Source of the DNA: an uncultured Gammaproteobacteria bacterium
GTDB taxonomy: Bacteria > Patescibacteriota > Patescibacteriia > UBA2196 > GWA2-42-15
Reading direction: 5' to 3'
DNA length: 64,000 nucleotides
NCBI GenBank assembly: GCA_964573135.1
Contig: CAZNIO010000005.1
Coordinates: 3,362-67,361 of the forward strand
The translations under genes and the position numbers were made by a program. This document shows, piece by piece, positions 35,113-61,698 of this stretch. Every line of letters begins with the position of its first letter. Position 1 is the stretch's first letter. Under the pieces are notes generated by a model. The model ran no database searches. It was not told the origin of the DNA and saw nothing but the letters and a program-made list of their open reading frames with translations.

Positions 35113-35116
35113 ATAA

Positions 35117-36998: not shown

Positions 36999-37015
36999 AA
37001 ATTTCTAGTTTAAAA

Positions 37016-38908: not shown

Positions 38909-38984
38909 AAAATCACATTAATATTTTAATATCTAAACACAATACTTAAAATTCAATATTCTATAAACACATCAACACACTAAA

Positions 38985-39668: not shown

Positions 39669-39685
39669 AAATATTAATTAATTGA

Positions 39686-40114: not shown

Positions 40115-40119
40115 AAAAA

Positions 40120-41094: not shown

Positions 41095-41153
41095 AAATTA
41101 GCTAAATTAATTATACCAAATATCAACAATTCCGCCTAAATTCACCTGCTTTT

Positions 41154-42533: not shown

Positions 42534-42661
42534 ATATACTTTAAGACGGTTACAAAAATCTGTTTTCTACTACGAAACTGTCACCAAATACTATTATGAC
42601 TATAATTCCAAAAATTCAATCAAATTTTTCATCCCGTGGCCACAGGATCTACAAAAATTAT

Positions 42662-47000: not shown

Positions 47001-47453
47001 CGCTATTATAAGCTTAGGTAAAAGTTTTTTATACTGATAAGTCTCAATATTAAATAAAGTCCCAAAGGCAATTAAAAGAATTATTACTATAAAAAACATA
47101 TTAGCAAGATCTCGCACCATCACCCAACCCAAAGCCACAGCCCGTGAATCAACAAAATTATTAAACTCAAGCACTCCAATCACCACGCTAATAAAAAGAG
47201 TTAACAGTTTACCAACTACGCTTATAAAAAAAGCAAACAAATCTGCCAAAAGCTTAGCCAGTCTCTGCCCCGGCAAATTGCCACCTTGCGGCTCCGTCAT
47301 GGTAGCTGTACCTCCGGTAGCTGTACCTTGCCCTAAAGCAGTATCAGCAAAAACGCCAAAAACAACCATTATGACTAATAATAGCAAGCCAGTGACAATA
47401 AATAGTTTTCTTTTTTGATTAATTTTTCTAAACATAATTATAAATCGGAACAA
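44079..47453 (-). CDS. VirB6/TrbL-like polytopic membrane protein with ~700-aa C-terminal charged coiled-coil extension
   Basis: The first ~400 aa contain 6-8 TM helices with a Gly/Thr-rich periplasmic loop after the signal anchor, as in TrbL/VirB6. The remainder is K/E-rich with heptad-like periodicity. Confidence 0.55.
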   Translation of the reverse strand: MFRFIIMFRKINQKRKLFIVTGLLLLVIMVVFGVFADTALGQGTATGGTATMTEPQGGNLPGQRLAKLLADLFAFFISVVGKLLTLFISVVIGVLEFNNFVDSRAVALGWVMVRDLANMFFIVIILLIAFGTLFNIETYQYKKLLPKLIIAAVLVNFSKMIVGLFIDLGQTVMMTFVNAWADGAAGGFLNALGVEQMLQLRDVIGKTDQEIDHYAIAGSVILAFIMLLIAALVILTMIAVLLARIIMLWILLIFSPIVFIASAMPNGPLDKIGMFGQYWSYLTKYIIVGPILAFFLWLSFGILQQIGEEDKSHVIELYRQKPEGHVDRAKYVEYLASKISSPQRMFDYMTTIALLIASLLITQQMGVMGGNIGMNAVTKVKDVAQRGLVSAAKWTAKKPFQLAAYGERKLYKTTGFSALNPMRKHRKRKAIKEKNKAMDEIEGQKKAGDVSQALYREGWGRLGMTYMRQGDQDDYDKYYGGLRGKLKMMRTWSGAEKYGTKAQDKADEKLEDMGMDELLNYQAGAKHIDAVEEGKDALFKQEKENRTNYNERQITGGQGRVILIDEKGDIVQGDMDEDDPAYSRLRSAYAKELENTVQYAALGDSTEDKQKKKDMVRDKIADDYANKKNGIALITTTGDDGKPITEIRDFNSIVKKDIAKMQVDRDEDWQERQKARINQKDESELKKRGIDSLNEKVSEKKKELEEVEKGGLTANQKEVKIGRATELEEEMGALKQEMKKLRKEGKEGERENVGYELAEKLKEQKKMARKDSKGEWIAKLSKEELKVNKKSVKNEEGKISGEARKMQKNIWEMQGAVVFANGNMKGIGGQDIKTKDDVKEESKKLTGIKKSILAEVSNIPRTLQADNAYRLLESEELQNLPKDSMEAEELNSLIDDAVKNRDRPRLAVLLKKAAQDYNDNEFLNHSGYTSNAKGMQSFSNEILEGKAGMTKNQALGLMNEIAYINESRGHTETSRLITFEKGMPKWMKEEEHAAAVANEVLKQPSRAFLQNTNRLGYGGETAGGDYELALSGKLMLIGTQDDLMNRFERGEFNGSAFQKIAMEQLGEIKKLEEQGLITARGVGSKYQGMKMSEILGSMAKGFRQRGVYANYSSLKDKAEFMKHI

Positions 47454-47767
47454 ATACTTAATGGTCCATCTCCCCCAAAAAGAGAGTAAACAGAGCTAAT
47501 AGCCTGGACTGATGGAAGATAGCATGCTCCATAGGCAAGAAATACAATAAAAGCAACTAAAACCCCCACACCAAATAATACCAAAGCATAAGCTAATATT
47601 AAAACCAATCCCTTATTTTCTTTCCCTAATTTAGCCCAAGAAAAAATATTAGTTCCACCAGATAAAGCAATCCCAGCAACCGCCTTAGCTGTCTCTTTCT
47701 TTTTTTTTATACTAGCATTTTTTTTCTTATTTTGATTATCATTTTTCGGCATAAAATTATTACTCAT
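47438..47767 (-). CDS. Small K-rich membrane protein (one long TM), possible pilin/VirB2-like candidate
   Basis: 109 aa. Lys-rich N-terminus, 28-aa hydrophobic span, short C-terminal tail with Cys. Overlaps neighbours on both sides. Confidence 0.35.
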   Translation of the reverse strand: MSNNFMPKNDNQNKKKNASIKKKKETAKAVAGIALSGGTNIFSWAKLGKENKGLVLILAYALVLFGVGVLVAFIVFLAYGACYLPSVQAISSVYSLFGGDGPLSICSDL

Positions 47768-48848
47768 ATTCTTTACATTTATTCATTAATTGACCAACAA
47801 GTATCAGCTTACTAGCAGCAGCCTTCCAGCCAGAGGTTGCTTCGTTGGCTGTCATAAACCAATTAATTCTCAGCTCATTACTTTCATCCACAGATATAGT
47901 ACAATGCTCATCTTTACCACAAAGGTTGCCTAAATAATAATTCCATTTAAGTGGAAAACTCAAAAATTTAGACTGAACATATAAAAAACCACATCCTTTC
48001 ATATTAGTATTACTATAATCAATAGACCAAGTATTTGTACCAAATCCAAATCCAACATTATCCTTAAAGGTTAATTCAGATACCTTTTGGACTGACTCTG
48101 GGTCATCTTTAGTCATATAGCAAATATCTTTTGAAACACCAAGCCCCATACAAAACTGATCTTCTTTCTTCGGCTCTGTTTGTTCTAACAACATATATAA
48201 ATTGCCACACTCAGGGACTTCACCTTCGTCTAAATCTGGAATTAATTTTTGACTTTTTTTACAAATTCCAATAACATTTTTATTATCCTTAAGCGTAATA
48301 CTAGCTGGCTGCAACTTCAATTCAGTCAAAGCCGGATTAATCCATGATAATATACTATACGATCCAAGTGCTAATACTAATCCCATTATAGCTGATATTA
48401 TAGTAGTTTTAGCTCCTGCTATCTTTTGAGCGTTACCAGCTGCAAGCAACCATTTAAAACCTCCCAGCATTATCATAACTACTGCTAACAATCCGACAAC
48501 ACCGATAAACAAATTATATATACCTCTTATGTATTGAGGGAAGCCTGCTACGCAATGACGGGTACCAGTCTTATTTTGCTCAAGAGTATGTTTATCTAAA
48601 TTATACACCGAATATGTATATGTACAATCATGTGTTGCTCCAGGTATGCCAATCTGTAGTTCAATAGGAAAAGTCTCAGGGCACTTGTCCTGACATGTTC
48701 GCGCCATTACATCCATCCCGACAATAAACACTCCCACTAAAACAATATTTAAAATCAATAATTTATAAAAAATTAATTTCATATTTTTATGTCTTCGACC
48801 CAGGCAATAACTCCTCATTCCGACTAATTTTAATAATATAAATTTCAT
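47760..48848 (-). CDS. Modular membrane protein, paralog 1: variable Cys-containing N- and C-terminal ectodomains around a conserved two-helix hydrophobic core (TrbC/VirB2-like hairpin, tentative)
   Basis: Core HCVAGFPQYIRGIYNLFIGVVGLLAVVMIMLGGFKWLLAAGNAQKIAGAKTTIISAIMGLVLALGSYSILSWINPALTELKLQPASITL is identical to paralog 2. The flanking domains differ. Confidence 0.55.
   Translation of the reverse strand: MKFILLKLVGMRSYCLGRRHKNMKLIFYKLLILNIVLVGVFIVGMDVMARTCQDKCPETFPIELQIGIPGATHDCTYTYSVYNLDKHTLEQNKTGTRHCVAGFPQYIRGIYNLFIGVVGLLAVVMIMLGGFKWLLAAGNAQKIAGAKTTIISAIMGLVLALGSYSILSWINPALTELKLQPASITLKDNKNVIGICKKSQKLIPDLDEGEVPECGNLYMLLEQTEPKKEDQFCMGLGVSKDICYMTKDDPESVQKVSELTFKDNVGFGFGTNTWSIDYSNTNMKGCGFLYVQSKFLSFPLKWNYYLGNLCGKDEHCTISVDESNELRINWFMTANEATSGWKAAASKLILVGQLMNKCKEYE
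48150..48559. repeat. Direct repeat copy A (~410 bp, near-identical to 49241..49649; last ~270 bp perfectly identical)
   Basis: Read directly: ...ACTAGCTGGCTGCAACTTCAATTCAGTCAAAGCCGGATTAATCCATGATAATATACTATACGATCCAAGTGC...GCTACGCAATGA occurs in both genes. Confidence 0.9.
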
Positions 48849-48862
48849 TAGCTAACTTCGTC

Positions 48863-49921
48863 TTATTGACAGTCCTCTGCTCCACTAAACATAGCAACAT
48901 TAACCCACCCCCTTAACTCGCTCGGCCAATTACTCCTGCCATAATGCCAATGAATCTTATGTTTTGACATATCAACAGCACAATACTTGCCCGTCGGACA
49001 CCTCTCACTAATTGCTGATCCAGTTCTCTCGCCATCGTCATTAATAAAAAAATACATATCCCCACATTTAGAATCTGGAATTGGATCCGTGCCTCCCAAC
49101 TCTCTGGCTATAACACTGTAAGGAACAGCGAGCCCACCAATAGCAGCAATATTGAGTGTCCGTACGGGGGTAACAGTACCGTTTTTATCACGAAAACATA
49201 TATAGGGTGACATTGAATTAAACGGCGGTTTATATCCCTCACAAAACTGATCTTCTTTCTTAGGCTCTGTTTGTTCTAATAACATATATAACTTGCCACA
49301 CTCAGGGACTTCACCTTCGTCTAAATCTGGAATTAATTTTTGATTTTTTTTACAAAAACCAATAACATTTTGACTGCCCGTAAGCGTAATACTAGCTGGC
49401 TGCAACTTCAATTCAGTCAAAGCCGGATTAATCCATGATAATATACTATACGATCCAAGTGCTAATACTAATCCCATTATAGCTGATATTATAGTAGTTT
49501 TAGCTCCTGCTATCTTTTGAGCGTTACCAGCTGCAAGCAACCATTTAAAACCTCCCAGCATTATCATAACTACTGCTAACAATCCGACAACACCGATAAA
49601 CAAATTATATATACCTCTTATGTATTGAGGGAAGCCTGCTACGCAATGAGTCGTAACCGTCTTAACATCCATACCAGCCTTAGGCTTTTTATCAAAATTA
49701 TAATAATCAGCCAAACAACTGTAAGATGTAGATACTCCGGGTATACCAATTTGTAATTTTATCGGAGTAGGATCAAGGCAAGCTTTTGGCTTATTATTTA
49801 CACATTTACTCACTGCCAAAGCGTTATTTACCGAAAACGCACCAAAACCGACAAATACAATAATAGTTAAAAATAATGCCAATAGAATACGCACACTTAC
49901 TCTTTTCTTAACAATCTTCAT
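48863..49921 (-). CDS. Modular membrane protein, paralog 2 (same conserved core, different termini)
   Basis: See paralog 1. N-terminal signal anchor, Cys-rich N-terminal domain, identical core, distinct C-terminal Cys-containing domain. Confidence 0.55.
   Translation of the reverse strand: MKIVKKRVSVRILLALFLTIIVFVGFGAFSVNNALAVSKCVNNKPKACLDPTPIKLQIGIPGVSTSYSCLADYYNFDKKPKAGMDVKTVTTHCVAGFPQYIRGIYNLFIGVVGLLAVVMIMLGGFKWLLAAGNAQKIAGAKTTIISAIMGLVLALGSYSILSWINPALTELKLQPASITLTGSQNVIGFCKKNQKLIPDLDEGEVPECGKLYMLLEQTEPKKEDQFCEGYKPPFNSMSPYICFRDKNGTVTPVRTLNIAAIGGLAVPYSVIARELGGTDPIPDSKCGDMYFFINDDGERTGSAISERCPTGKYCAVDMSKHKIHWHYGRSNWPSELRGWVNVAMFSGAEDCQ
49241..49649. repeat. Direct repeat copy B
   Basis: See copy A. 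A few substitutions and a 1-bp indel in the first ~140 bp, then perfect identity. Confidence 0.9.
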
Positions 49922-50007: not shown

Positions 50008-53000
50008 TTACCTCACAACAATCTCTATCTCATCACTAGTAAGTTCATTACCCCCGTGGTCAGTAATAGTTAATGACGCGAAATAAATACCAGCCAATGG
50101 ATAACTATGTGTTCTCAAAATATGACTATCAATATCATCAGCAATAGTAGTTTCATAAGAATCATTATCACCAAAATCCAAAAAAACAAGCATTGGATAT
50201 TCACCCACTGAAACAAACACATCTGCGTCAAAATTAACAGTTAAAGGCGCTACTCCAAGTATAGGACTAGCAACAAAATCCTGAATAACCAATCCATTAT
50301 CAGGTATAACTGGTAGTATAACGGGTGGTTGATTTGCAGCCCTTATAACCAAAGTTACAGGTATTGTTGCAGTTCCTCCATTACTTAAAATCCGTAATTC
50401 ACCAGAATGATTACCAACAGACATTCCCGATATTCCTGCAACTGTTACTACTATTGGTTCGTCGTCTTTCCCGCCCATCGGATCAATCGTCATCCACGCC
50501 ACATCTTCTCTAACAGACCAGACCAAGACTCCTTCGCCATTGTTGGATATATTAATTATCTGATCGTTATCATCTACAGCCCCATCATTGATGGCTGTAA
50601 AAACCAACTCACTTTGGTCAAGGCTTAAAATAGGAGGGTTCTCAATGGCCCTTTTTTCCTTATAAACCACAACTCTCATCAGTGGCTCATGCCACTCATC
50701 CCTGCCCTGCCCCCAATTATCTTCAAGCTGAATTCTTATATTAAACTCACATTTACCAAGAGTATCATCACAAGCCGGATCACTCGCATCATATTTATAA
50801 TGATGCACTAAAATATGAGGATTACTCATATCGCGCCCAGCAATTCTAAGCCCAGCCTCTGTAGATTTTTCATCGTCTCCCCAATCAACTGTATATCGTA
50901 CCAAAGGAATTTGATTAGGATTAACAAATGAATCAAATTTGAGCACTGCAGTACCCTCAATAAATATGGTTCTATCTAAAAAATTACTATTATTAATTAA
51001 AATATTTTTAACCTGGGGCGGACTGCCATAATAGTCAGTTAAGTCATAATTATCCCTATTATTCATCTTCACATACCGATATCTGTGTATACCACTGGTG
51101 TTATCAAATTTCCACTCCCAAACATCAAATGATTTAGCAAATATCTTACTCAAATTATATTCACCCTTAGATAAATTCATCGGTCTTAACACGAGATCAG
51201 TATTAATTAAATCATTGCCACCCTGCCCCACGACCAAACTATTTAGCTTGTCAAATTCGTCATCCTCAGAAATATCATTAAAATACACTTGGGAAGCACT
51301 AATACCAACACATAATCCATACTTGCCAGTCACTATGTCCAGCTCGCAATCTTCTCTTCCATTTCGACAAGGCTGTCCAATTTTTGATCCTGAAACACAA
51401 GTAGCTGGACCAAAAAACTCAGGTGGTGGATTAGATAAGCTATATTTTTCACAAACGCTTGTAACACAATTACCCCTTATTAAACCATAAGCCCCACCTG
51501 CTCGTGGCTGATAAGGGCTCACTTCCCCCATTGTCTTATCAGCTGGCTCTACATAAATAGCGCTTGTCCATATTGACGGATCCTCAACAGGATCTGGCGG
51601 AATAATTGAACCAAATAGCATATAGTCATCACCTTTGGTATAACCCACCCATGATGGATCGTCAACATTCCCAGAATTCAATCTCTTCAGCCACGCCGCA
51701 TTAAAACCATCTAAATCAACCACTTGAGCAATTTTTAAACAAGGCTCGCTTAAATAAAAAGTTAAACTTAAGGTAGCTTTATCTGTCCCGTCACCTGAAT
51801 CTGATGGATCATCACACTCTTTAAAATAAATTTCATATAAATCCCCGGTATCTTCATAAAAACTTAATTTCATTCCCAAAAAATTACCTATCTTGCCATC
51901 ATTATCATTACCGCAATCCAGATAAGTATCACTAAATATATCTTCACCCTCTCTCTCTCCTTCATTATATTGAAAAACCCAAGTGTTACCCTCCCAAAAA
52001 TAACCTGTATACCCCATTTTATTTGATTCGCCACCTCTTGGAGCAGTTTCATTCATGCCTAAAGGCCCATCACTCTTGGCGTTCAACAAGCTCCCGCTCA
52101 AATTCCATTGGCTACCACTGCCATTAGTATGTAACCTAACTCCCAATATTTCACTCCGGTTCAACCTAGACCCATCAAAATTCCAAAATATATAGCTAGC
52201 TTCTCCAACATTACGATCCATAATTGTAACGGGATACTCATAAGTCACCCTATACTCTCCAGATTCATAAGGAGAAATATATGACTGTCTATCTTCTGTC
52301 TCCAAAATATTATTATCACTTTCTCTTCTACTTACCCACTCACACCCAGACTTAGTGTTACACACCTCTCGGGTTTTATTTCCCCCACACGTCATCTGTG
52401 GCGAACACGCCCCTAAGTCAACATTCTCCCTCTTGTAATTCCCAGCTGCTTCGAGACAATAGTATAATGGTTTTCTACCTGTATACCCAGCTACATCATC
52501 CACTCCAAAAACATTAGATTCACCTCGTACCACATCTACCGGCCACCACTGTAAACACATTGGCTGACTGGTATATTGTCTATCTGTCCATCCTGGATCA
52601 GGCTCCACGCAATAACCTTTCCACCCTTTATAATCTTTACCCTCATCTTCATCATAATAGTCGCATGCCGGTGCATTTTCACGCGGATAAAGACGACAAG
52701 AACGGGAAATAAAATTTAAATCATCTCCAATTTGTAAAGCACCTTTCATCGATACATTATCAAGATAAAAGGTATCCATATTTGCCTTAATATCACCACT
52801 TACAAAAGCAACGTTTAATTTATTCAAATTACTGCTCCCGCCATAGTCCACAGGTCCGTTCACTCGCATAATAAATTCCTGCCAATATGGCTCCAGCCTC
52901 ACCTTTTTCTTTACTGGGCTTACCAACGGATCTATTTCATTAAAATCATAATAAGTAAAAGGTATATAACCACCTGTTCCACCATCTCTATCCGGTGCCA

Positions 53001-55905
53001 ATTCTACTATAATATCCTGCCCATCCCAATTATCAGTTCGTGCCCTAAAACTAATAATATAATCCTTGCCAGCCTTAACCTCTTTAGCCAAACCCGTGAG
53101 CACAACACCTGGAAATGGCTGATCCTTATCAAGATCAACTTGCAATACTCGATTAGAAGTATTTCTTTCATCAATCACATTTAAAATATACTTATCAATA
53201 TTATTATAAGCTGACCATGGTCTAGTAGTACCATCTTCAAAATTAAAATTAGCAATATTAACTGGTACACCAGCTTCTGTCATACTACTATATGGATAAT
53301 TCCCCCGTATTTTAGCTTCAACACACTGGCCTTCGCCACACACGCTCTTGACTGATTGGCACGTCTCTAAACGGCAATCTCGATTAGAGGTACACGCTCC
53401 ATGACTGATGACACCCCCGCAATAACCACAAATTGATCCAGTATTACTACATCGATATCCCCAATCTAACCCCGCCTTAGAATAACCAGATAAATTAGCG
53501 ATGGATTCTGCATCGCCAGGATGCTGACGGGTTAGCTCGTTAGTTGATGAGTCAACACTATGTGCACAACCACCAGCCTCATCTAGTTCATCACACAATC
53601 CAACAGAAAAACACACTTCTTCATTACCTGGCTTTTGTCCCACTTGAAAAATTTCTGTATTCTGTCTTGGCACTTCAACATAAGCATTACAATATAGCCA
53701 CGTGTCACACGTCCTATCAGGATCAACCCGTAAAATAATATTAGAGTCCGGCGAAGATAACTCATCATCAGTTGTAAAAGTTAATACCTTAAAATCACAA
53801 GTAGCAGAAGAGGAGCATCCACCGCCAGCAGTCCGGTTTAGAGTCTCTTTTGTGGTATGCGAACTTATAACAACCCTATAATCTGTATCATCTAAAAGAC
53901 CTGTTAGTTTTACCTCGTGTCCTGATACTAACTCTGCCTTTTTTATCTCCGCATATTCTCCACCTGAAGGCCTATAATAAACAACAGTATTTGATAATCC
54001 ATTTTTGTTTATACCCTTTCTTGTCCACCATGAAACCACCGCACTATTAGCCTTAATTTTACTTTTAGGAACAATATGATCATAAATCTCCAACTTATCA
54101 ATTTGTACCGCTGTAAATTCACCACTCACAGGCGGAGTCAAGGATGTGAGCCCAGAACCACTAGCTCCATTACATATAATAGTATAATTATAAGCCTGAC
54201 CGGACGTTAACCCAATTACCTTATAACTATGAACTGTACTTGCGCTACTATCAATTGAAGGCGCTACCTGTCCACCCACCACATTCAATCTACAAATAGC
54301 ATCTAAGTTCGTCGAAAAACCGGCAGTGGCTGCTGTCTCACTTACTGTTATGTTTACCTGTCCATCTATAACTATCTCTTTTTTAATAATTTTATATATT
54401 CCTTCACCTTTACTAGAAATCAGCACTACATCATTACCGCTCTTTATTTGCGTACCATTCTCAAAAGTTATTTTAGTTGAATCAATTTCCACAAATTTCG
54501 CTCCAAAATCCATATCAGCCAATTTAACTTCCCCTGTTCCCCCTGTATATCCTCGTAATTTAATAGTTACTTTTCCACTACCAGCACTTTCCTCCGCAAC
54601 GCTATTAGCAATACTACTATTTACATCTAATCTATTATCACTCATGCTCCAGTGGCTATTAGTATAATCTAAAACCACATCAATATCTGTTACATTTGAA
54701 TTATTATTATTCAAAATTAATTCAATAGGTAAAGTTGTCCCAGCATTTACCGTCACCCGCGAAGGTGAAAGTAAAAGTGCTGCCGTACCAGGTGGCGGAG
54801 TAAAACAGTCTCGCGTACAACATCTATGAATTTCACTTAACCACATACTGCCAGGACACATCTCGTCTTGACTACAAATTTTTTCAGATGCACAAGTTAA
54901 ACACGCTTCCTCACAACACTCATTTATCTCATCCATCCAATTATTCTCAGGGCACAATTCATTCTGATCACATATATTATCTACAGAACATACAAAACAC
55001 GTCTGTCCACAACACCTAGTTGCTTCATCTAACCAAGTATTTACAGGGCACAATTCATTTTGCGCACAAACGTCTCCTGTGCAAACCACAGGTGGCTCAC
55101 AAGCCACCGCGCAACACCTCGTAGTCTCGTCCTCCCAATTATTACAAGTCTCCACCGAATTACACAACTCTCCGGAACAACCCTCCTCGCCTCCACCGCC
55201 GCCTCCCCCATCACAACTCAAGGTGATATCATAATTACCACCGCTACCGTCCACGGAATAATCCACACCTAATACAATCCCAGTCTCTTCCATGCCGAAA
55301 CCAGATGTCTGCTCCGACGCATCCCCTGATTGATTACCAAAAAACCTCATTTGAGTACTGCCACTCGCGCTTGGAGCCACTGTCACATTTAAAATTGCTA
55401 ACAACCTATTATCCTCATTCAGAGGTGACGAGGAAGCGCGTACTACCTGAATCAATCCCGCACCATCATCCACGAATTCAAGCGCATCTCCTCCTATACC
55501 ATAATGAGACAAACTACTATCAATAGATATATTACTAAATTTAGATGAGTCGTATGATATAAAAGAACCAGCAGTTATCACACCAAAACCATTCTGATTT
55601 GAATGATTAGCCGGATTAACATCTGTCATAATCCTAATAGAATAAGTTTGCCCACACTTCATCGTTCTATCCTCAATCTCCTGCCCCATCCCATCAGTTA
55701 ACCTCATCACTGGATCGCCAGATACAGCCAAAGCAAAAATTAATCCTAAAGCAAGCACTATTACCAACAAGGGCAACATAAAATATATCACCTTCTTTTT
55801 AGGAGACATCCATTTTATTTTCTGTTTCAACCTAAACCACCTTGAAGTCTTATATACCTCAAGGCTCTCAGGTGTTTGGCTATTCACATCGTTAACCTCT
55901 GGCAT
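50008..55905 (-). CDS. Giant (1965 aa) membrane-anchored surface protein: cohesin-like N-terminal domain, four tandem Cys-rich ~33-aa modules, Ig-like/beta-rich regions, C-terminal PKD-like domain
   Basis: N-terminal TM anchor. Poly-Gly then modules CxxxxCxxxELCPxNxWxDExxxCCxxxC repeated four times (aa ~265-370; DNA ~54798-55113). C-terminal ...FGDNDSYETT...THSYPLAGIYFASLTITDHGGNELTSDEIEIVV resembles PKD. Confidence 0.7.
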   Translation of the reverse strand: MPEVNDVNSQTPESLEVYKTSRWFRLKQKIKWMSPKKKVIYFMLPLLVIVLALGLIFALAVSGDPVMRLTDGMGQEIEDRTMKCGQTYSIRIMTDVNPANHSNQNGFGVITAGSFISYDSSKFSNISIDSSLSHYGIGGDALEFVDDGAGLIQVVRASSSPLNEDNRLLAILNVTVAPSASGSTQMRFFGNQSGDASEQTSGFGMEETGIVLGVDYSVDGSGGNYDITLSCDGGGGGGGEEGCSGELCNSVETCNNWEDETTRCCAVACEPPVVCTGDVCAQNELCPVNTWLDEATRCCGQTCFVCSVDNICDQNELCPENNWMDEINECCEEACLTCASEKICSQDEMCPGSMWLSEIHRCCTRDCFTPPPGTAALLLSPSRVTVNAGTTLPIELILNNNNSNVTDIDVVLDYTNSHWSMSDNRLDVNSSIANSVAEESAGSGKVTIKLRGYTGGTGEVKLADMDFGAKFVEIDSTKITFENGTQIKSGNDVVLISSKGEGIYKIIKKEIVIDGQVNITVSETAATAGFSTNLDAICRLNVVGGQVAPSIDSSASTVHSYKVIGLTSGQAYNYTIICNGASGSGLTSLTPPVSGEFTAVQIDKLEIYDHIVPKSKIKANSAVVSWWTRKGINKNGLSNTVVYYRPSGGEYAEIKKAELVSGHEVKLTGLLDDTDYRVVISSHTTKETLNRTAGGGCSSSATCDFKVLTFTTDDELSSPDSNIILRVDPDRTCDTWLYCNAYVEVPRQNTEIFQVGQKPGNEEVCFSVGLCDELDEAGGCAHSVDSSTNELTRQHPGDAESIANLSGYSKAGLDWGYRCSNTGSICGYCGGVISHGACTSNRDCRLETCQSVKSVCGEGQCVEAKIRGNYPYSSMTEAGVPVNIANFNFEDGTTRPWSAYNNIDKYILNVIDERNTSNRVLQVDLDKDQPFPGVVLTGLAKEVKAGKDYIISFRARTDNWDGQDIIVELAPDRDGGTGGYIPFTYYDFNEIDPLVSPVKKKVRLEPYWQEFIMRVNGPVDYGGSSNLNKLNVAFVSGDIKANMDTFYLDNVSMKGALQIGDDLNFISRSCRLYPRENAPACDYYDEDEGKDYKGWKGYCVEPDPGWTDRQYTSQPMCLQWWPVDVVRGESNVFGVDDVAGYTGRKPLYYCLEAAGNYKRENVDLGACSPQMTCGGNKTREVCNTKSGCEWVSRRESDNNILETEDRQSYISPYESGEYRVTYEYPVTIMDRNVGEASYIFWNFDGSRLNRSEILGVRLHTNGSGSQWNLSGSLLNAKSDGPLGMNETAPRGGESNKMGYTGYFWEGNTWVFQYNEGEREGEDIFSDTYLDCGNDNDGKIGNFLGMKLSFYEDTGDLYEIYFKECDDPSDSGDGTDKATLSLTFYLSEPCLKIAQVVDLDGFNAAWLKRLNSGNVDDPSWVGYTKGDDYMLFGSIIPPDPVEDPSIWTSAIYVEPADKTMGEVSPYQPRAGGAYGLIRGNCVTSVCEKYSLSNPPPEFFGPATCVSGSKIGQPCRNGREDCELDIVTGKYGLCVGISASQVYFNDISEDDEFDKLNSLVVGQGGNDLINTDLVLRPMNLSKGEYNLSKIFAKSFDVWEWKFDNTSGIHRYRYVKMNNRDNYDLTDYYGSPPQVKNILINNSNFLDRTIFIEGTAVLKFDSFVNPNQIPLVRYTVDWGDDEKSTEAGLRIAGRDMSNPHILVHHYKYDASDPACDDTLGKCEFNIRIQLEDNWGQGRDEWHEPLMRVVVYKEKRAIENPPILSLDQSELVFTAINDGAVDDNDQIINISNNGEGVLVWSVREDVAWMTIDPMGGKDDEPIVVTVAGISGMSVGNHSGELRILSNGGTATIPVTLVIRAANQPPVILPVIPDNGLVIQDFVASPILGVAPLTVNFDADVFVSVGEYPMLVFLDFGDNDSYETTIADDIDSHILRTHSYPLAGIYFASLTITDHGGNELTSDEIEIVVR

Positions 55906-55911
55906 AGTTGC

Positions 55912-56544
55912 CTAATTAATTAAAAAATTTAAATCCATTAAGTCAAGATTCATCAAAGTTGCCTGCCCATCATCAACTGCCACTTGAGTCTCCTGATTAT
56001 CAAGCCAGACTCTTGCCTCACCAGATTCTAGAGCGCGTAAAACAACGCTACTCAAAATACCATCACTCCCAGTATATCCGTCATCACTATCATCCACGTT
56101 ATTATCCCCTGGCTCACCTCTCACAATCTCCACATACCCATCTTCTTTGTTCTCAATGGCTCCAATAGATAAAACTGAATTTTCACTGTCCACTTCAACT
56201 ACCTCCCATTTACTCTTATCGTAATTTAATCTAATATTAACCGCTACTATATTTGTACCCAAAGTATCAAGCAAAACATTAGCTACTATCTCATCCCCAA
56301 CCTTCACTTCATTAACCATCGACTCTAAGTACATTTTACCCGCATAATCGCCAACTGGCTCTTGCTTATCATCAACTACAACTACCTCTACCTCTTCTTG
56401 CGGTTTATTAAAAATTAATATACCACCGATAACAATCAGGATAATAAGGACAATCAAACCAGGAATCCATACCTTTTTATTCTTCAACATGCCACAGCAC
56501 TTCTTCTCCTCCACTTCCCCCTCTTTTTTTTCTAAATTTTCCAT
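55912..56544 (-). CDS. Membrane-anchored cohesin-like domain protein (tentative)
   Basis: N-terminal TM. Beta-rich domain VKVGDEIVANVLLDTLGTNIVAVNIRLNYDKSKWEVVEVD resembling cohesin type folds. Confidence 0.4.
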   Translation of the reverse strand: MENLEKKEGEVEEKKCCGMLKNKKVWIPGLIVLIILIVIGGILIFNKPQEEVEVVVVDDKQEPVGDYAGKMYLESMVNEVKVGDEIVANVLLDTLGTNIVAVNIRLNYDKSKWEVVEVDSENSVLSIGAIENKEDGYVEIVRGEPGDNNVDDSDDGYTGSDGILSSVVLRALESGEARVWLDNQETQVAVDDGQATLMNLDLMDLNFLIN

Positions 56545-56566
56545 ATAATTATATATTAATTAAAAA

Positions 56567-59500
56567 TTAATTTGCTATCGGCATTGGCACGTTATAGCTG
56601 CAAATACCACTCAATTGACGATTAAATACCTTACAATCATTAATTGTCCGACAAGTCCTCCCCCATATATTACTACAAGTATTTGTCTTTGAATTGCAAC
56701 TACCAGTCTCGCCAGAAGCCACACAGTCACTATCCATCTCACACGGCTGATAAGGCGAAATAAAATTAGAACAATGCTTAGTACTAAAATATTTAAAATC
56801 TCCTCCGCCAACTTCATTAAATGGCAAACATCCTTTGCTTGGATCAACAGTGGTACAAGTATCCAGCGTATTGCTTAGATAATAATAATAATCGCAATAA
56901 GGATCCACGCCATATTCTCCATAAACAGATAATTTATCACATCCCTTAGGTCTTGAACGATCTTGAAATTCAGTACACGTATCCTGACCTACAGGGCAAG
57001 TGGCCGTCCAGCCACTGCATAATCCAGGAGAAGTTCCACGCGCATAATCTGCACACTCATCATTGCTTGAACACACATTCTCATTTACTCCCCCCAAATT
57101 ATTATTTGGCATACTTCTACCGCCCATGCAGTACCCTTCTTCACCGCCAAATACAAAGGGACAAAATTCAAGAGTTCCTATCTTATACCATGCATAACTA
57201 TTGTTATCATCTTTCTTGTACTCACACTCTTTACCATGAGGGTCTTCAAAATATTCCAATGCTCCAGAACTATCCATAAATTCATCACACCACATCTTAT
57301 CTGATGTGCATAAAGGACTTCCAGGAGTAGAAAAATCGTCTGGATCAACTATCATATATTTTGTTTCATAACTTATATAGCCGCTCAAACCAGAAACATC
57401 TGGCCACATCATACCAAGGGACATGCACCCATTGGTCGTACATTTCTTGCTTTCATCATAAACAATATATTCCAAAGAATCAGCTAAAACTGTAACTAAA
57501 CCATATGTTTCCCCTTCATGATTACTAGAATTTTTTGTATCAATCATTGGCTCACATCCGACCACCTCATCTCTGCATAATCCATCAAATGATTTTAGAT
57601 AAACTTCTCTATTTCTCATATCCTTATATTTCTCACAACCCACCATAGATCCTTCTGCTGGCTCATCACACGAGTCAGGCGTAACCCACGAATCACGAAT
57701 TAAATACAGGCTATCTTGAGTTTCAGTTAAGACAATGTTGTCGATATAAAATCCACTACCAGAATCAAGCATAATAGATAAAAGTTCTTTGCCCATCAAG
57801 TCTCTATCCAAGCTCTTTATATCAAACATATAGAATCCCCAATCTTCAGTTAAACTCACATCAGTTGACCCTTCAAATTCAGGATTACCAGTAAAAGAAA
57901 CTTCGCTAATTACTGCCGCTGTCTCAGCTCGTGCCCAAAATGATATTCTGTATGCTCGTCCCTGCTCTATAGCTCCAGTCACGTCTTTGGCAATACCATA
58001 AGTTGAAAACAAAGAATGACCACCCACTATTAAAGAGGTATTATCAGGCGTTCCGCCCTCCCAGTCTTGCTTAGTACCGTCTTCAAAATCATCATACAAT
58101 AAATTCGTCGTATTATTGCTCTTACTTCCCTTGTATTCTCGACAACCAACCGATCTAGCACCACACGTATCGCTTTGAGATAAAATAGCAGCATAATATG
58201 TCTGATCCTCTGTTCTGCGTAACAAAGTACAATCCTTAGAAGCAAAAACCACTTTTGACTGCTCAATCTTATACTTACTACCGCTTAAATCAGTAAACTC
58301 AATGCATTCTGGACTATAATCAATATCACCCACATTAGTTGAACAGCTATCAATACTTGTATCAGCACAAGTCACCTCGCCATTTGCCGTCGTTATTGGA
58401 TTTGTACATGGAGCATCACCCAAATTAGATTTAAGCAAAGACCAACTACGTAATCTATTTCCTCCCACTTTTTCCGTTGACTCCCAAGTATAATAGACGC
58501 TCACTCCAGATTCACCTGGACCCACACATGCTCGCAAATATGAATAATTTTCTATTCGTTCTCCCTCAATTCCCTCTGATAAATTAGTAAATTCTTCACA
58601 CCCCACATCAGCTGCCGGACAAGTCGAAGCCGTTGTATCAATTAAATTAACAAATTCATCAGTTGCCTCTGGTGGATCAAAAAATGTAGTTTTCTCAACA
58701 TATGTCTTATACCCAACACATTCACCGGGACACTTGTCGTCTTCTACCACAACTCCAGGCACGTCTGGACCCAAATATGATATTGGTTTATAAAACTCAC
58801 AATTAGCATCGCTTGAATTACAATACAAAGCATAACTTGCACACTCAAGAACCCCACTCTCCACACATGCCTGTATATCCTCACGCCACAAATAACCTGC
58901 CATCTGACAACCCTCTTCATCCTGCGCAACACCCTCAGCAACATCAGTAAATCCCTGGCAACTCAAATAGCTAGGAGCTTTACGCAAATTAATAGGATAA
59001 ACGGACTCATAAACTTCAATAGCACTAAATGTACCGGCCACTACTGCATCTAGATCAGCTTGTGACCCTATCCTATAAAATAAGCTACATCCTTCTTCCT
59101 CGGGAGAGCACTCCTTATCACTTGCATTTCGATTTAAATACTTTCTTTCGTTGTTTGGATCATCGCAACCCCACCCTCCATTATCCACATCAAAATAAGC
59201 ACAATATTCACGACACCCGGCATTAGAAGCATCACACGCCCCATCACTTCTACCCCGCAGAGTATTTGTTAAATAATTAACCTGTCCCCCAGCTCTTGTA
59301 GTAAATGATTTACATGTGTTATAAACCGCTGAACATTCTGTACCGTGTATATCCCAAACTGATTTTTCCTCAACACAATAACCATAGAAATCACATCGAG
59401 AACCATCTGCACTTTCCTTAATACAAGCCCTCTCATCAGCACAATACTCAGAGTTCCTATACACTACCATTTTGTCCTCATCGCGAGGATCGACATGAGT

Positions 59501-61060
59501 AGATACAACATGTTCGCCAGACCCTTCTCTGCGACACACAGTTTCCGGCACTTTAACTACCCAGCTTGGATCAACTAATTTATAATATGGCGACTGTGGA
59601 TTGTTATAATCATTAATTAATTTACTTAAAGTTAAAGGCCCCCCTGAATTATCAAATTGCCTAAAATATTCTGCAGCCAACTCCCAACCAACTGGTATTA
59701 TCCTATATTTGCGCATAATAACTAAGGAACGATACGAATATATCCGTTCACCAGCATCCTCTATCCCGCCTGTCTTGTCAGCCCGATAACCAAAATCCCA
59801 GTTACCATGTAAAAAATCTTCGTCCAATGCCTGACGAACAGTTAAAGGTGGCTCTTGCAAAAGAGCCGTCTCAAGCGATTGATCAACAGTACACGCATAC
59901 TGGCTTACTTCATTATTACAACTCAAACTATTAACTACATCATAGGGGCCACTAAAAACATAATCTGGCCTACCTAGATCAGCATATATCTCCTCAGCTG
60001 CTGCTCGTCCACTAGCTTTTAACAAGCTCAACCCTGACAAGCCAGGAATATTTGAAATATTTTTTCCATTTCCATCAGGATTAAACCCACGTTTAAAAAT
60101 ATTACTTATTACCCTGCTGGTCAAAGTATTAGTAAATATACCGATAGCGTCAGCTGCAGCCTCCCCTGTATATATCCCATAAGGAATAAGTGACTGATCA
60201 ATCCAAGAAACAGCTCGTGAGCTATACATTTGTGCTACAGTTATTGTATTACCACTCACTTTACTAGTTTTAGACTTAAACTCACCCTCAGCAGTTTTCT
60301 TCAATTTAAGAACCTCCAAAACATCAAACTTTTTCTGATGAGCCCCCGATATAATGGTTAAAGTTTGCCCCAATTCATTGCCAGAAGGGTTAAAAAAAGA
60401 AGAAAATTCAACTAGCTGACTGATATTTAAATGCTCAAGGTCTTTAATATTTTTCAAAATAGTTTTCCAACTACACCTAGGTGGCCCAGGCGCCCACACT
60501 CTTCTAGCCGTTGTCTCAACACGCACCTTAGCCAAAGGGTTTAAGGGCTTGCATAAATCTTTACCCCACATTCTACCGATTGTATTATTTAAATAGTCAC
60601 CCACTGCCCCTTGCCATTCATCATCAATAAGTTTTTTCCAGTTAGTCTCAATCGCTGGTTTTTGACCGTTTATATCAGTAGCAAGATCAATGGCTCCCTG
60701 ATAAGCAATACGAGATAACATCCTTTGTAAAGCATTCTTATATGCTATAGCGCCCACCTTCTTAAAAGCATCTTTAAATTTCTGCCACAAACTTGTTTTA
60801 ATTTTATCCACATAAGTTATTCCCATCTCCTGCATTTTTAACTGCGTTAACGGAATATCCATAACAGGAGTAAAAGGAAGAAATTGAGCATTGGCAACCG
60901 ATCTAAGCTCAACACGATCTCCGCCCTCTTCTTTCATCAATACACTAGGCGACACAAAAAACACTCCCAAACTAGAAAACACAAAAATCAAAAAAAACCA
61001 AACAGCCAAAGCTCTTTTTATATTTCTGGTCTTTTTTAATTTTTTAATATAGTCCAGCAT
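56567..61060 (-). CDS. Giant (1497 aa) Cys-rich secreted/membrane-anchored surface protein
   Basis: N-terminal signal anchor. More than 90 Cys spread across the ectodomain, no catalytic motifs recognised. Confidence 0.65.
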   Translation of the reverse strand: MLDYIKKLKKTRNIKRALAVWFFLIFVFSSLGVFFVSPSVLMKEEGGDRVELRSVANAQFLPFTPVMDIPLTQLKMQEMGITYVDKIKTSLWQKFKDAFKKVGAIAYKNALQRMLSRIAYQGAIDLATDINGQKPAIETNWKKLIDDEWQGAVGDYLNNTIGRMWGKDLCKPLNPLAKVRVETTARRVWAPGPPRCSWKTILKNIKDLEHLNISQLVEFSSFFNPSGNELGQTLTIISGAHQKKFDVLEVLKLKKTAEGEFKSKTSKVSGNTITVAQMYSSRAVSWIDQSLIPYGIYTGEAAADAIGIFTNTLTSRVISNIFKRGFNPDGNGKNISNIPGLSGLSLLKASGRAAAEEIYADLGRPDYVFSGPYDVVNSLSCNNEVSQYACTVDQSLETALLQEPPLTVRQALDEDFLHGNWDFGYRADKTGGIEDAGERIYSYRSLVIMRKYRIIPVGWELAAEYFRQFDNSGGPLTLSKLINDYNNPQSPYYKLVDPSWVVKVPETVCRREGSGEHVVSTHVDPRDEDKMVVYRNSEYCADERACIKESADGSRCDFYGYCVEEKSVWDIHGTECSAVYNTCKSFTTRAGGQVNYLTNTLRGRSDGACDASNAGCREYCAYFDVDNGGWGCDDPNNERKYLNRNASDKECSPEEEGCSLFYRIGSQADLDAVVAGTFSAIEVYESVYPINLRKAPSYLSCQGFTDVAEGVAQDEEGCQMAGYLWREDIQACVESGVLECASYALYCNSSDANCEFYKPISYLGPDVPGVVVEDDKCPGECVGYKTYVEKTTFFDPPEATDEFVNLIDTTASTCPAADVGCEEFTNLSEGIEGERIENYSYLRACVGPGESGVSVYYTWESTEKVGGNRLRSWSLLKSNLGDAPCTNPITTANGEVTCADTSIDSCSTNVGDIDYSPECIEFTDLSGSKYKIEQSKVVFASKDCTLLRRTEDQTYYAAILSQSDTCGARSVGCREYKGSKSNNTTNLLYDDFEDGTKQDWEGGTPDNTSLIVGGHSLFSTYGIAKDVTGAIEQGRAYRISFWARAETAAVISEVSFTGNPEFEGSTDVSLTEDWGFYMFDIKSLDRDLMGKELLSIMLDSGSGFYIDNIVLTETQDSLYLIRDSWVTPDSCDEPAEGSMVGCEKYKDMRNREVYLKSFDGLCRDEVVGCEPMIDTKNSSNHEGETYGLVTVLADSLEYIVYDESKKCTTNGCMSLGMMWPDVSGLSGYISYETKYMIVDPDDFSTPGSPLCTSDKMWCDEFMDSSGALEYFEDPHGKECEYKKDDNNSYAWYKIGTLEFCPFVFGGEEGYCMGGRSMPNNNLGGVNENVCSSNDECADYARGTSPGLCSGWTATCPVGQDTCTEFQDRSRPKGCDKLSVYGEYGVDPYCDYYYYLSNTLDTCTTVDPSKGCLPFNEVGGGDFKYFSTKHCSNFISPYQPCEMDSDCVASGETGSCNSKTNTCSNIWGRTCRTINDCKVFNRQLSGICSYNVPMPIAN

Positions 61061-61092: not shown

Positions 61093-61698
61093 CTATTGAC
61101 TCTGCAATGTCTCTAAATAAAAAGCCATCAAAGTTTCATCATCTATCTGACTCAAATCCTCCTCAGTAACTCCTCCACTCTCAAGTAAAAGTTGTCGCAC
61201 ATCTTCAGCTGTTAAATCTTTTAATTGATCCTTAAGCTCTGGCGTTAATTCCGCCCCTTCCCCTGTATTCTCATCCTCGTATTGGTAATCCTCTACATAG
61301 CCCCCGCTATCATCCACTCTCTGCTCACGACAATTCACGCCTTTGGGACAATTTGGATCATAACCATCATCAACTTCATCTTTGTCTAAATATCCATCAG
61401 AGTCTGTATCCTCCAAATACATCGATGTTTTATAAATATATAATTCTTCAAAATCAGATAAACCATCACCATCTGTATCTGCCACCTGTAATTCCTCCAC
61501 GCTCCTTGCGTCTGTTTCTAAACTGTCGCCATAATCAATCTCATCTCCACTCGGAGCATAATTACCACCCGCTAAATTAATAGTTTTACTCACTTGCAAA
61601 ATACCAAGAACAATAGCCGAAATACCAAAAAAACACAAAGCAATAAACATCACTTTAGTCCATGTATTTTTTGGTGTTTTATTTAAATCATCTGTCAT
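61093..61698 (-). CDS. Membrane-anchored acidic protein with thrombospondin type-3-like calcium-binding repeats
   Basis: TM anchor. DTDGDGLSDFEE and DTDSDGYLDKDEVDDGYDPNCP (DxDxDGxxDxxE). Very acidic C-terminus. Confidence 0.6.
   Translation of the reverse strand: MTDDLNKTPKNTWTKVMFIALCFFGISAIVLGILQVSKTINLAGGNYAPSGDEIDYGDSLETDARSVEELQVADTDGDGLSDFEELYIYKTSMYLEDTDSDGYLDKDEVDDGYDPNCPKGVNCREQRVDDSGGYVEDYQYEDENTGEGAELTPELKDQLKDLTAEDVRQLLLESGGVTEEDLSQIDDETLMAFYLETLQSQ

Follow-up and report, generated by a model that had tools for sequence, protein, structure and literature searches.

A split giant cysteine-rich protein family at the head of a type IV secretion gene cluster in Patescibacteria

On pCF10, genes for surface proteins lie upstream of prgH, prgI and prgJ, which encode the VirB6-, VirB3- and VirB4-like parts of a type IV secretion system (T4SS) of the MPF-FATA type. 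Surface adhesins of Gram-positive T4SSs are believed to bring cells into contact and to stabilise that contact (PMC12102498). In Saccharibacteria, a T4SS without relaxase and coupling protein is essential for epibiotic growth (PMC10633639), and a phylum-wide survey did not find a PrgB-like adhesin and stated that adhesins were undetected (PMC12102498).

We analysed a stretch of 64,000 nucleotides from a Patescibacteria contig (the window), in which two giant Cys-rich proteins head a chromosomal, CPR-type T4SS cluster. Its 18 genes lie on one strand with operon-like gaps of -16 to 128 bp. The main features are as follows.

61093-61698, minus strand: small protein of 201 aa, membrane-anchored, with a tandem pair of TSP3-type DxDxDG calcium-binding motifs (Pfam TSP3_bac)
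56567-61060, minus strand: 1497-aa giant, N-terminal half of a conserved giant family
55912-56544, minus strand: 210-aa membrane-anchored cohesin-domain protein between the halves (TM aa 20-50)
50008-55905, minus strand: 1965-aa giant, C-terminal family half (core aa 717-1755) with lineage-specific additions at both ends
47760-49921, minus strand: tandem pair of genes (352 and 362 aa) with VirB2-like T4SS pilin domains and Cys-containing C-terminal domains
44079-47453, minus strand: 1124-aa polytopic VirB6/TrbL-like membrane protein without Cys, which follows the giant in relatives
34408-44065, minus strand: remaining T4SS-like cluster (Pfam and NCBIfam scans), colinear in relatives

As in the CPR T4SSs of Wang et al. 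2023 (PMC10633639) and Quinonero-Coronel et al. 2025 (PMC12102498), VirB4, a TrsD-like N-terminal fragment, PrgI/VirB3, a VirB6-like protein and VirB2-like pilins are present, and Pfam and NCBIfam scans revealed no relaxase in the window cluster. The pilin genes match Pfam T4SS_pilin at 37.5 and 37.4 bits (cut-off 26.6). The VirB6-like protein has six to eight hydrophobic segments within its first 370 aa, and its homolog in L002 gives a weak Pfam TrbL_3 match. From 44065 toward 34408, the remaining cluster begins with genes for a conserved 467-aa protein, an inserted Schlafen/AlbA_2 protein, a conserved 324-aa protein and PrgI (VirB3-like), followed by a TrsD/TraC-like 227-aa protein, a VirB4-like ATPase (630 aa), proteins of 194 and 436 aa and a DsbA-like thioredoxin. 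In contrast to the published systems, whose component lists lack a giant Cys-rich protein, the giant and the TSP3 protein are conserved members of the window-type locus, joined in this clade by the cohesin protein.

The order from ksgA through the small TSP3 protein, the giant, the VirB6-like protein, PrgI and TrsD to VirB4 is colinear in 82 loci, and clusters complete through VirB4 were found in L003 and others. The module's conserved first gene encodes the TSP3 protein (27.4 bits, cut-off 25; TM aa 12-40): 64 of the 69 relatives' loci with enough flank carry a homolog within 1.5 kb upstream of the giant, with a spacing of 23 residues between the two motifs in most relatives. Among the 37 loci with 6 kb or more of flank, 34 have a VirB6-like homolog downstream of the giant, and ksgA is present in 57 of 66 with enough flank. 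Synteny that includes ksgA could partly reflect vertical inheritance and not functional coupling.

The ORFs for the 1965-aa (50008-55905), 210-aa (55912-56544) and 1497-aa (56567-61060) proteins contain no internal stops. Since an ENA contig from an independent assembly matches 14,492 bp of the window, spanning all three, at 100% identity, frameshift artefacts are unlikely and the ORFs can be taken as real and intact, as first described. The source is a metagenome, and assembly can collapse or expand repeats, but exactly the same proteins are held in several public sources, the giants have full-length homologs, and the four copies of the Cys module described below (mean column identity ~68% in DNA) are too divergent for mis-assembly. 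The probability that assembly or annotation produced the long ORFs or the repeat array as artefacts is close to negligible.

The two giants had been regarded as separate proteins. Alignment by BLASTP shows them instead to correspond to the two halves of one conserved Patescibacteria giant protein family, the halves being fused in most relatives into a single polypeptide of 2350-3500 aa that joins a 1497-like part to the equivalent of aa 717-1755 of the 1965-aa protein. For example, aa 3-1407 of homolog P0002 match the 1497-aa protein and aa 1665-2517 match aa 717-1750 of the 1965-aa protein, and 15 fused homologs show this both-halves mapping. Likewise, aa 717-1750 match the C-terminal parts of fused homologs of 2350-2620 aa, the N-terminal parts of which match the 1497-aa protein. 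In all, 43 homologs were found, and at least 369 species-representative genomes encode a relative, under record titles that include Kuenen-, Komeili-, Magasanik-, Veblen-, Buchanan- and Kerfeldbacteria. As no Saccharibacteria member was seen among the 80 loci listed, the Saccharibacteria T4SS essentiality data do not concern the giant protein. The family is not previously described.

The gene is split in the clade of the window, where its halves flank a gene for a membrane-anchored cohesin protein. Our sequence-only reading of the 210-aa protein as cohesin-like was borne out by a Pfam Cohesin match over threshold (32.9 bits, cut-off 24.1, E 8.7e-8). The fetched loci contained 34 fused ORFs and 16 ORFs with the second-half core only, the latter in 15 split loci; a cohesin-type gene separates the halves in 11 of these 15 split loci versus 0 of the 34 fused loci (p 4.7e-8, a value that overstates independence, the link between split form and cohesin gene being probably a single evolutionary event). 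The restriction of cohesins to split giant genes suggests a role in assembling the parts of the giant and not in recruiting enzymes.

In the split clade, the second half has also acquired a TM anchor of its own as well as a stalk, which runs from a cohesin-like domain through a poly-Gly hinge and six-Cys modules to a second cohesin-like domain and fn3-like domains. The 1965-aa protein is laid out as follows.

55717-55785, minus strand: N-terminal TM anchor (aa 41-63; hydropathy), kept in split-form relatives
55216-55698, minus strand: weaker cohesin-like domain (aa ~70-230)
54805-55179, minus strand: four six-Cys modules of ~32 aa each (aa 243-367; regex and HMM scans)
54382-54795, minus strand: cohesin-like domain (aa 371-508; hhalign)
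53758-54348, minus strand: fn3-like beta-sandwich region (aa 520-716; Pfam), which aligns with relatives
50641-53757, minus strand: conserved core (aa 717-1755; 26-sequence alignment and Pfam)
50014-50622, minus strand: variable C-terminal tip with BACON_2 (aa 1762-1853) and PKD_4-like (aa 1888-1964) domains (Pfam)

The TM anchor, the only one in this protein (~aa 41-63, hydropathy peak 2.96), follows a 40-aa basic cytoplasmic tail, and the hinge is a GGGGGG run at aa 233-238; both features had been called correctly. Comparison of the 210-aa cohesin family with aa 371-508 by hhalign gave a probability of 99.3% (E 4.2e-20), and BLASTP with the 210-aa protein itself matched aa 33-166 (E 0.001) and aa 357-455 (E 0.005). 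At aa 616-686, Pfam Pur_ac_phosph_N (E 1.5e-5) and fn3 (E 1.4e-3) both fall under their curated cut-offs. The core comprises a Cys-hairpin region, a CBM_4_9-like domain (aa 884-984; 24.2 bits, cut-off 25.9), a beta-rich region and a putative PKD-like domain (aa ~1640-1750) with the motif VDWGDD as read from the sequence. Its invariant motif in the 26-sequence alignment is CRLYP...CDYYDE...GWKGYCVE...WWPVD, and an AF2 model is mostly beta but of low confidence (mean pLDDT 42). The terminal PKD-like domain noted earlier is present as a BACON/PKD-like end (BACON_2 28.7 bits, over the cut-off of 25; PKD_4 23.4 bits, just under the cut-off of 27), for which tblastn found no match in the nearest relatives.

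The 1497-aa protein is divided as follows.

aa 17-38: signal or anchor segment
aa 44-373: helical region
aa 374-508: conserved alpha/beta subdomain with the invariant motif RKYRIIPVGWELAAEY
aa 509-980: first Cys-hairpin region
aa ~985-1115: CBM_4_9-like domain, scoring under the Pfam curated cut-off
aa 1120-1497: second Cys-hairpin region

No fold match was found for the N-domain structure model (mean pLDDT 63.5). We counted 63 cysteines in this protein, not the more than 90 originally reported. Cysteine makes up 3.2% and 4.2% of the two giants, 3.5-4.6 times the window median of 0.91%, and ~45 Cys are invariant in the family.

Taken with the gene context, these features suggest, with a probability that we put at roughly 55%, that the giant serves the T4SS as an extracellular scaffold stapled by disulfides, or as its host-contact arm. 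The sequence-only reading had proposed a modular adhesin or cell-cell contact apparatus. Its extracytoplasmic, modular, Cys-rich and contact aspects hold, and the contact aspect is strengthened by a T4SS cluster that is syntenic in dozens of relatives, whereas adhesion as such we only infer. Domain and sequence searches gave no homology of the giants to characterised adhesins or T4SS subunits. In relatives, identity is 40-46% for the 1497-aa protein, 37-41% for the core and 47-48% for ksgA, with a variable stalk (26-33%). The core changes slowly, at about the pace of ksgA, as would be expected of a structural part of a machine more than of a fast-evolving adhesin.

Each of the four proteins (201, 1497, 210 and 1965 aa) has one N-terminal hydrophobic segment, and all would be exported or anchored with their bulk outside the cell. 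Their ~130 cysteines could be oxidised to disulfides with the aid of the DsbA-like protein at the cluster end, yielding a rigid, protease-resistant extracellular scaffold. This scaffold would bear two CBM_4_9-like domains together with PKD-, BACON- and fn3-like beta-sandwich modules, which could bind host envelope glycans, and could hold the VirB2-like pilus or the VirB6 channel against the host cell. Where the gene is split, the stalk would restore the distance of the core from the membrane, and cohesin-type domains may join the parts non-covalently. On pCF10, the aggregation substance PrgB as well as PrgA and PrgC are likewise large proteins exported to the surface, and their genes lie immediately upstream of channel genes. 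However, the giants share no sequence similarity with them and have neither an LPXTG anchor nor the glucan-binding, Ig-like adhesin domains of PrgB. The giants are 3-5 times larger, extremely rich in Cys, chromosomal and conserved at housekeeping-gene level; they also coexist with VirB2-like pilins, which Gram-positive T4SSs lack.

Alternatively, the giant might be a general envelope or S-layer-type structural protein that sits beside the T4SS through vertical inheritance and does not work with secretion. A core conserved like ksgA would fit a housekeeping envelope component, ksgA itself belongs to the conserved neighbourhood, and nothing links the giant physically to T4SS parts. We nevertheless consider this unlikely, since the order giant, VirB6-like, PrgI, TrsD, VirB4 is kept down to 25-30% giant identity, the genes are tightly packed on one strand, and in the window's clade an insertion of pilin genes separates the giant from the VirB6-like gene. 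Sec-type N-terminal signal or anchor segments, and dozens of invariant cysteines that imply folding and oxidation outside the cytoplasm, make it quite improbable that the giant is no part of the apparatus but an effector or toxin which the T4SS delivers into the host cell as a substrate. Genes for T4SS substrates do often adjoin machine genes, and CPR T4SSs, which are without relaxases, are thought to export proteins (PMC10633639, PMC12102498), but a toxin or enzyme domain was looked for in the four proteins and 19 family members and not found, and slow evolution is unlike that of effectors.

The Cohesin match over threshold, the CBM_4_9-like domains in both halves (CBM_4_9 occurs in 14 of the 19 family members), a true Dockerin_1 in homolog P0022 (E 2.5e-7) and a xylanase CBM (4xup) as the sole PDB sequence match recall a cellulosome-like complex, in which cohesin, dockerin and CBM modules assemble on the cell surface to bind or degrade polysaccharides and harvest glycans. 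The resemblance to cellulosomal scaffoldins extends to a Pfam Cohesin domain on a membrane-anchored protein and to cohesin- and CBM-like modules in a large surface protein. Yet a Pfam scan of the window revealed no dockerin-like partner, enzymes were likewise not found in the window, none of the four proteins and 19 family members has a glycoside hydrolase or other catalytic domain, and the cohesin gene, confined to the split clade, does not define the family. Glycan harvesting of this kind is therefore very improbable.

The Cys modules of the stalk lie between the poly-Gly run and a TPPPG segment, at aa 243-269, 275-303, 306-335 and 338-367, and the six Cys and single Trp of every copy follow the pattern C-x4/5-C-x5-C-x2-4-W-x6-CC-x3-C. 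The array of four tandem units stands as first described, but with a period of 31-32 aa, not ~33 aa; the corresponding 96/93/96 bp also replace the claimed ~105-bp DNA repeat. Because Tandem Repeats Finder detects no DNA-level tandem repeat here and the copies are just 68% identical, the periodicity is a protein-level feature. With ~32 aa, six conserved Cys and a tandem arrangement in an extracellular protein, the module resembles EGF-like, TNFR/CRD, granulin and knottin repeats and could, like these, form three disulfides. It differs from them in a spacing with an invariant Trp and a CC pair that is unmatched in Pfam Cys-rich models and the PDB: Pfam gave no Cys-rich or disulfide domain family, its sole match being a chance-level spectrin repeat (E 0.063, 13.7 bits), and neither a single sequence nor a 13-copy profile matched PDB sequences at E<=10, in agreement with the initial view that the module belongs to no named family. 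In the 13-copy alignment, the Cys and Trp positions are invariant. The distribution among homologs indicates that the array is a small, clade-confined addition and not the core of the system; the module could act as a rigid spacer. Among eight close relatives, one module occupies the same position in L009, L013, L015, P0049, P0051, P0053 and P0055, and two are found in P0050, raising the possibility that the stalk was lengthened by amplification from one copy to four.

The sequence-only reading had described two giant Cys-rich surface proteins with a cohesin-like protein encoded between them, and all three ORFs were found exactly where it had placed them, with no internal stops:

50008-55905 (-): 1965-aa giant, uninterrupted ORF
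55912-56544 (-): 210-aa cohesin protein, uninterrupted ORF
56567-61060 (-): 1497-aa giant, uninterrupted ORF

The concern that these ORFs might be frameshifted was checked and is not borne out, as the frames are open and, over 14,492 bp spanning all three ORFs, an independently assembled ENA contig matches the window at 100% identity. Several public sources also contain identical protein sequences, and artefacts of frameshift or assembly can be discounted. Cysteine accounts for 3.2% and 4.2% of the two giants versus a window median of 0.91%, and the 1497-aa protein contains 63 cysteines, not the more than 90 first counted. Between aa 509 and 1497 of this protein (56567-59536, -), a dispersed second Cys motif, C-x6-C followed by [RSED]-[ELP]-[FYM], recurs at least seven times (for example CDASNAGCREY, CPAADVGCEEF and CGARSVGCREY). 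C-x6-C is also the commonest Cys spacing there, occurring 12 times, which suggests that this region may be made of many small disulfide hairpins and not of one large domain. The 1965-aa protein begins with 40 aa of basic character followed by a single transmembrane (TM) segment at approximately aa 41-63; six Gly in a row (GGGGGG) occupy aa 233-238. [quoted passage not shown] A promoter and terminator scan gave counts close to shuffled expectation and was uninformative.

The two giants had been taken for separate proteins. Homologs of the 1497-aa protein (43 in all) fall into two length classes, ∼1400-1650 aa and ∼2350-2620 aa. In BLASTP comparisons, the N-terminal ∼1400 aa of the long homologs match the 1497-aa protein and their C-terminal 850-1000 aa match aa 717-1750 of the 1965-aa protein, so that both giants are spanned by one polypeptide. 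Judged from these alignments, the two giants are halves of one conserved protein family that is split in the window. The idea that they are duplicates of each other was rejected, as BLASTP between them gave no significant paralogy. Word-indexed searching for homologs with the entire 1965-aa protein returned only the protein itself and one fused homolog, and aa 66-716 alone returned nothing, the protein itself included; we read this as a limit of the search, with candidate lists probably crowded by low-complexity words, and not as absence. When one genome per species was scanned, at least 369 genomes proved to encode a relative of the giant. The record titles of the 78 distinct loci that were fetched name Kuenen-, Komeili-, Magasanik-, Veblen-, Buchanan- and Kerfeldbacteria, which we take to belong mostly to GTDB class ABY1, as well as unclassified Patescibacteria. 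L008, L010, L012, L014 and ∼30 other loci have the typical Patescibacteria arrangement under species-representative records titled 'uncultured Gammaproteobacteria bacterium', and these titles look like mislabels.

Among the fetched loci there were 34 fused ORFs (the longest 3525 aa) and 15 split loci in which the second-half core (aa 717-1755 of the 1965-aa protein) stands alone (16 ORFs). An intervening cohesin gene of ∼200-250 aa was present in 11/15 split loci versus 0/34 fused loci, although the Fisher p of 4.7e-8 overstates the independence of these cases, since the association of split and cohesin gene probably reflects a single evolutionary event. The second half in its split form has its own N-terminal TM anchor and one or more cohesin-like domains. 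Comparison of the two forms indicates that three things were gained along with the split: the cohesin gene, the new anchor and the stalk (the extra N-terminal region of the 1965-aa protein). In L005 (10001-23660), the giant is apparently split further into ORFs of 1836, 1355, 798 and 395 aa, with the core shared out between the last two, so there is more than one fission point.

The giants' region heads a same-strand block of 18 genes spaced by -16 to 128 bp. Gene identities were assigned from Pfam and NCBIfam scans, and the order is as follows:

1: ksgA
2: 61093-61698 (-), 201-aa TM protein with two TSP3 calcium-binding repeats (TSP3 protein)
3-5: 1497-aa giant, cohesin protein, 1965-aa giant
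6: 47760-49921 (-), two VirB2-like T4SS_pilin genes (T4SS_pilin, each ∼37 bits)
7: 109-aa TM protein
8: 1124-aa polytopic VirB6-like protein, identified only by topology and a homolog's weak TrbL_3 match
9: two conserved function-unassigned proteins, separated by an inserted Schlafen/AlbA_2 gene
10: PrgI (VirB3-like), 44.4 bits
11: TrsD/VirB4 N-terminal-like protein
12: VirB4 ATPase (P-loop_TraG, 96.6 bits; AAA_10; DUF87)
13: two further proteins without assigned function
14: 34408-35112 (-), DsbA-like thioredoxin

VirB4, PrgI/VirB3, a VirB6-like protein and VirB2-like pilins thus occur in one cluster, the combination that marks a CPR-type (MPF-FATA-like) T4SS locus. By gene content, this is the Gram-positive-like T4SS of CPR type that Wang et al. 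2023 (PMC10633639) described and Quinonero-Coronel et al. 2025 (PMC12102498) surveyed. The sequence-only reading had proposed a cell-contact apparatus, a proposal that is partly supported; it had not used the surrounding T4SS cluster. The DsbA-like gene, which ends the block on the same strand, could plausibly supply disulfides to the Cys-rich giants and pilins. The Schlafen gene (459 aa; AlbA_2, HATPase_c_4 and wHTH domains; 41154-42533, -) was not found at that position in relatives and so looks like an insertion.

Gene order is colinear throughout the loci of the relatives. Counting only loci with enough flank, the TSP3 gene lies directly upstream of the giant in 64/69, ksgA lies upstream in 57/66 and the VirB6-like gene lies downstream in 34/37; PrgI, TrsD and VirB4 come next where the flank extends further. 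We define the family by PVGWELAA in the N-terminal domain, ∼45 invariant cysteines with recurring C-x6-C hairpins, a central domain resembling a carbohydrate-binding module (CBM) and a position between the TSP3 and VirB6-like genes. Alignment invariants, a pattern scan and synteny place all of these features in the window giants. We conclude that the CPR T4SS cluster is headed by one conserved giant extracytoplasmic protein family. Compared with the nearest relatives, identity is 40-46% for the 1497-aa protein and 37-41% for the core, against 47-48% for ksgA; by this measure, the giant is conserved to about the same degree as a housekeeping gene. Values are 30-32% for the 210-aa cohesin protein and 26-33% for the stalk, and the BACON/PKD tip (the C-terminus of the 1965-aa protein) has no match in the nearest relatives. 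This identity profile is that expected of a conserved scaffold with variable ends.

Domain searches bear out the description of the 210-aa protein as cohesin-like: it matches Pfam Cohesin (PF00963) at 32.9 bits, over the gathering cut-off of 24.1 (E 8.7e-8), and most of the domain is covered (profile positions 8-124 of 139). In profile-profile comparison, aa 371-508 of the 1965-aa protein are homologous to this cohesin protein (99.3% probability, E 4e-20), and a weaker cohesin-like signal is present at aa ∼70-230. In the tip, BACON_2 (PF19190) matches aa 1762-1853 at 28.7 bits (cut-off 25; profile positions 4-92 of 94). The terminal PKD-like domain proposed earlier has the motif LDFGDND, but the Pfam score of PKD (PF18911; aa 1888-1964, E 6.3e-5) is 23.4 bits, below the 27-bit threshold. 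Matches to fn3/Pur_ac_phosph_N in the 1965-aa protein are just under the Pfam thresholds. CBM_4_9 (PF02018; cut-off 25.9 bits) is likewise below threshold in both giants, at 24.2 bits in the 1965-aa protein and 17.8 bits in the 1497-aa protein, where it is the only Pfam match. At the same position it exceeds the cut-off in the homologs P0022 (39.2 bits) and P0024 (26.2 bits), 14/19 family members match it (best E 2.7e-7), and the family profile finds the CBM of xylanase 4xup in the PDB (E 3.7e-4). At the family level, the CBM_4_9 assignment seems sound. An AF2 model of the conserved core from a 16-sequence alignment had a mean pLDDT of 42 and was unfit for fold search.

Tandem Cys-rich modules had been proposed for the 1965-aa protein, and pattern and HMM scans located them as a head-to-tail array:

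54805-55179 (-): four six-Cys modules, at aa 243-269, 275-303, 306-335 and 338-367

The four copies are thus confirmed, but their period is 31-32 aa (96/93/96 bp) and not 105 bp, and the periodic repeat claimed at the DNA level was not detectable there, Tandem Repeats Finder having found no module repeat; column identity among the four copies is only ∼68%. The module follows the pattern C-x4/5-C-x5-C-x2-4-W-x6-CC-x3-C. It had been assigned to no named family, and this holds: in Pfam, the array matched no Cys-rich or disulfide family (models of the EGF, TNFR and knottin type included), giving only a chance-level hit to Spectrin_Dys-1 (E 0.063, 13.7 bits), a single module matched nothing at E<=10, and neither the array nor a 13-copy profile matched any PDB sequence at E<=10. 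When 1.84 billion representative proteins were searched exhaustively with HMMER, using aa 66-520 as query, 11 proteins reached E<=1e-3: the query and 10 others. In the full-length hits and in three fetched loci, the module sits at one common position (aa ∼230-280), with one copy in seven relatives, two in P0050 and four in the window protein. A module HMM run over 83 loci found it at this position in relatives and nowhere else. Since the copies share one position, their Cys and Trp residues are invariant over 13 aligned copies and the module is absent elsewhere, it is a real mini-domain, confined to the clade of the window and amplified in the window protein. The array is flanked by the poly-Gly run and a Pro-rich segment, and cohesin-type domains lie on both sides of it, making it a linker between the two. 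The modules may act as a spacer of adjustable length; this is a small domain without detectable relatives whose copy number changes from 1 to 4 between close relatives.

How might such a protein work? The giant would be exported by Sec, oxidised with the aid of the cluster's DsbA-like protein, and build a rigid extracellular scaffold displaying CBM-like and Ig-like modules. This scaffold could connect the host envelope with the pilus and the channel, and the cohesin-type domains may help to keep the split parts together. On the most far-reaching reading, the giant, fused or split, would be an unrecognised, Patescibacteria-specific structural core component of the T4SS, a disulfide-stapled extracellular bridge standing in for the missing VirB8, VirB9 and VirB10 and for an adhesin, and tying the host envelope physically to the VirB6 channel and the VirB2-like pilus. 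The split clade would reassemble it non-covalently via cohesin-type modules, with the six-Cys module as a new fold and length-adjustable spacer. We regard this composite as tentative, with a probability of roughly 0.3. The narrower proposal, that the giant is a lineage-specific structural component of the T4SS machine, has a fair chance of being right.

The leading alternative is a general protein of the envelope or S-layer, in which case the giant would merely be a neighbour of the T4SS genes in conserved gene order. A secreted effector is less likely, considering the Sec-type signal or anchor segments, the invariant cysteines and the slow evolution, and no toxin or catalytic domain was found. 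Cohesin-type domains might also point to a cellulosome-like complex harvesting glycans. Such systems, however, have a dockerin-bearing partner, usually an enzyme, whereas none of the four window proteins matches Dockerin_1 and no catalytic domain was found in these four or in 19 family members, making this reading less likely as well. The only dockerin occurs in a distant homolog of the 1497-aa protein, P0022 (L084 10001-15391), where a genuine Dockerin_1 (E 2.5e-7) is inserted after CBM_4_9; its contig ends before the downstream genes. The TSP3 proteins of the window (61093-61698, -) and of L002-L083 have two DxDxDG motifs, exactly 23 residues apart in most relatives. A role for them as a dockerin-like cohesin partner was considered and is left as speculation, since this spacing is that of ordinary tandem TSP3 repeats and Dockerin_1 does not match.

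Nor do the giants resemble PrgB/aggregation-substance adhesins, whose domains were unmatched in Pfam and NCBIfam scans; they lack the LPXTG sorting signal of the PrgB type, and what forms their C-termini is a PKD-like domain in one case and a Cys-rich tail in the other. Published surveys of Patescibacteria T4SS list no such giant component, and the most recent phylum-wide one reports no adhesin (PMC12102498); a literature search for a giant or Cys-rich T4SS-associated protein in Patescibacteria returned no description. We rate the family as undescribed and as belonging with surface proteins associated with T4SS. In Saccharibacteria, the sole lineage tested genetically, the T4SS is essential for epibiotic growth (PMC10633639). 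Because it heads the locus in at least 369 species with housekeeping-like conservation, the giant stands out as a specific candidate for the missing part that touches the host or spans the envelope. Patescibacteria account for much of bacterial diversity, and they live as cells attached to hosts. Split and fused variants exist naturally, with cohesin modules confined to the split form, and amount to a natural experiment in how the parts come together.

Two further observations concern genes within these clusters. The tandem pilin-domain genes (352 and 362 aa; 47760-49921, -) share a near-identical central block, a 300-nt direct repeat of 96% identity, while their C-terminal Cys-containing domains of ∼125 aa are mutually unrelated; the pilin 'heads' look like products of cassette-style variation or gene conversion. 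Small 23S_rRNA_IVP/bAvd-like genes lie within the T4SS clusters of two relatives (L002 8555-8740; L003 22633-22995), bAvd being an accessory protein of diversity-generating retroelements.
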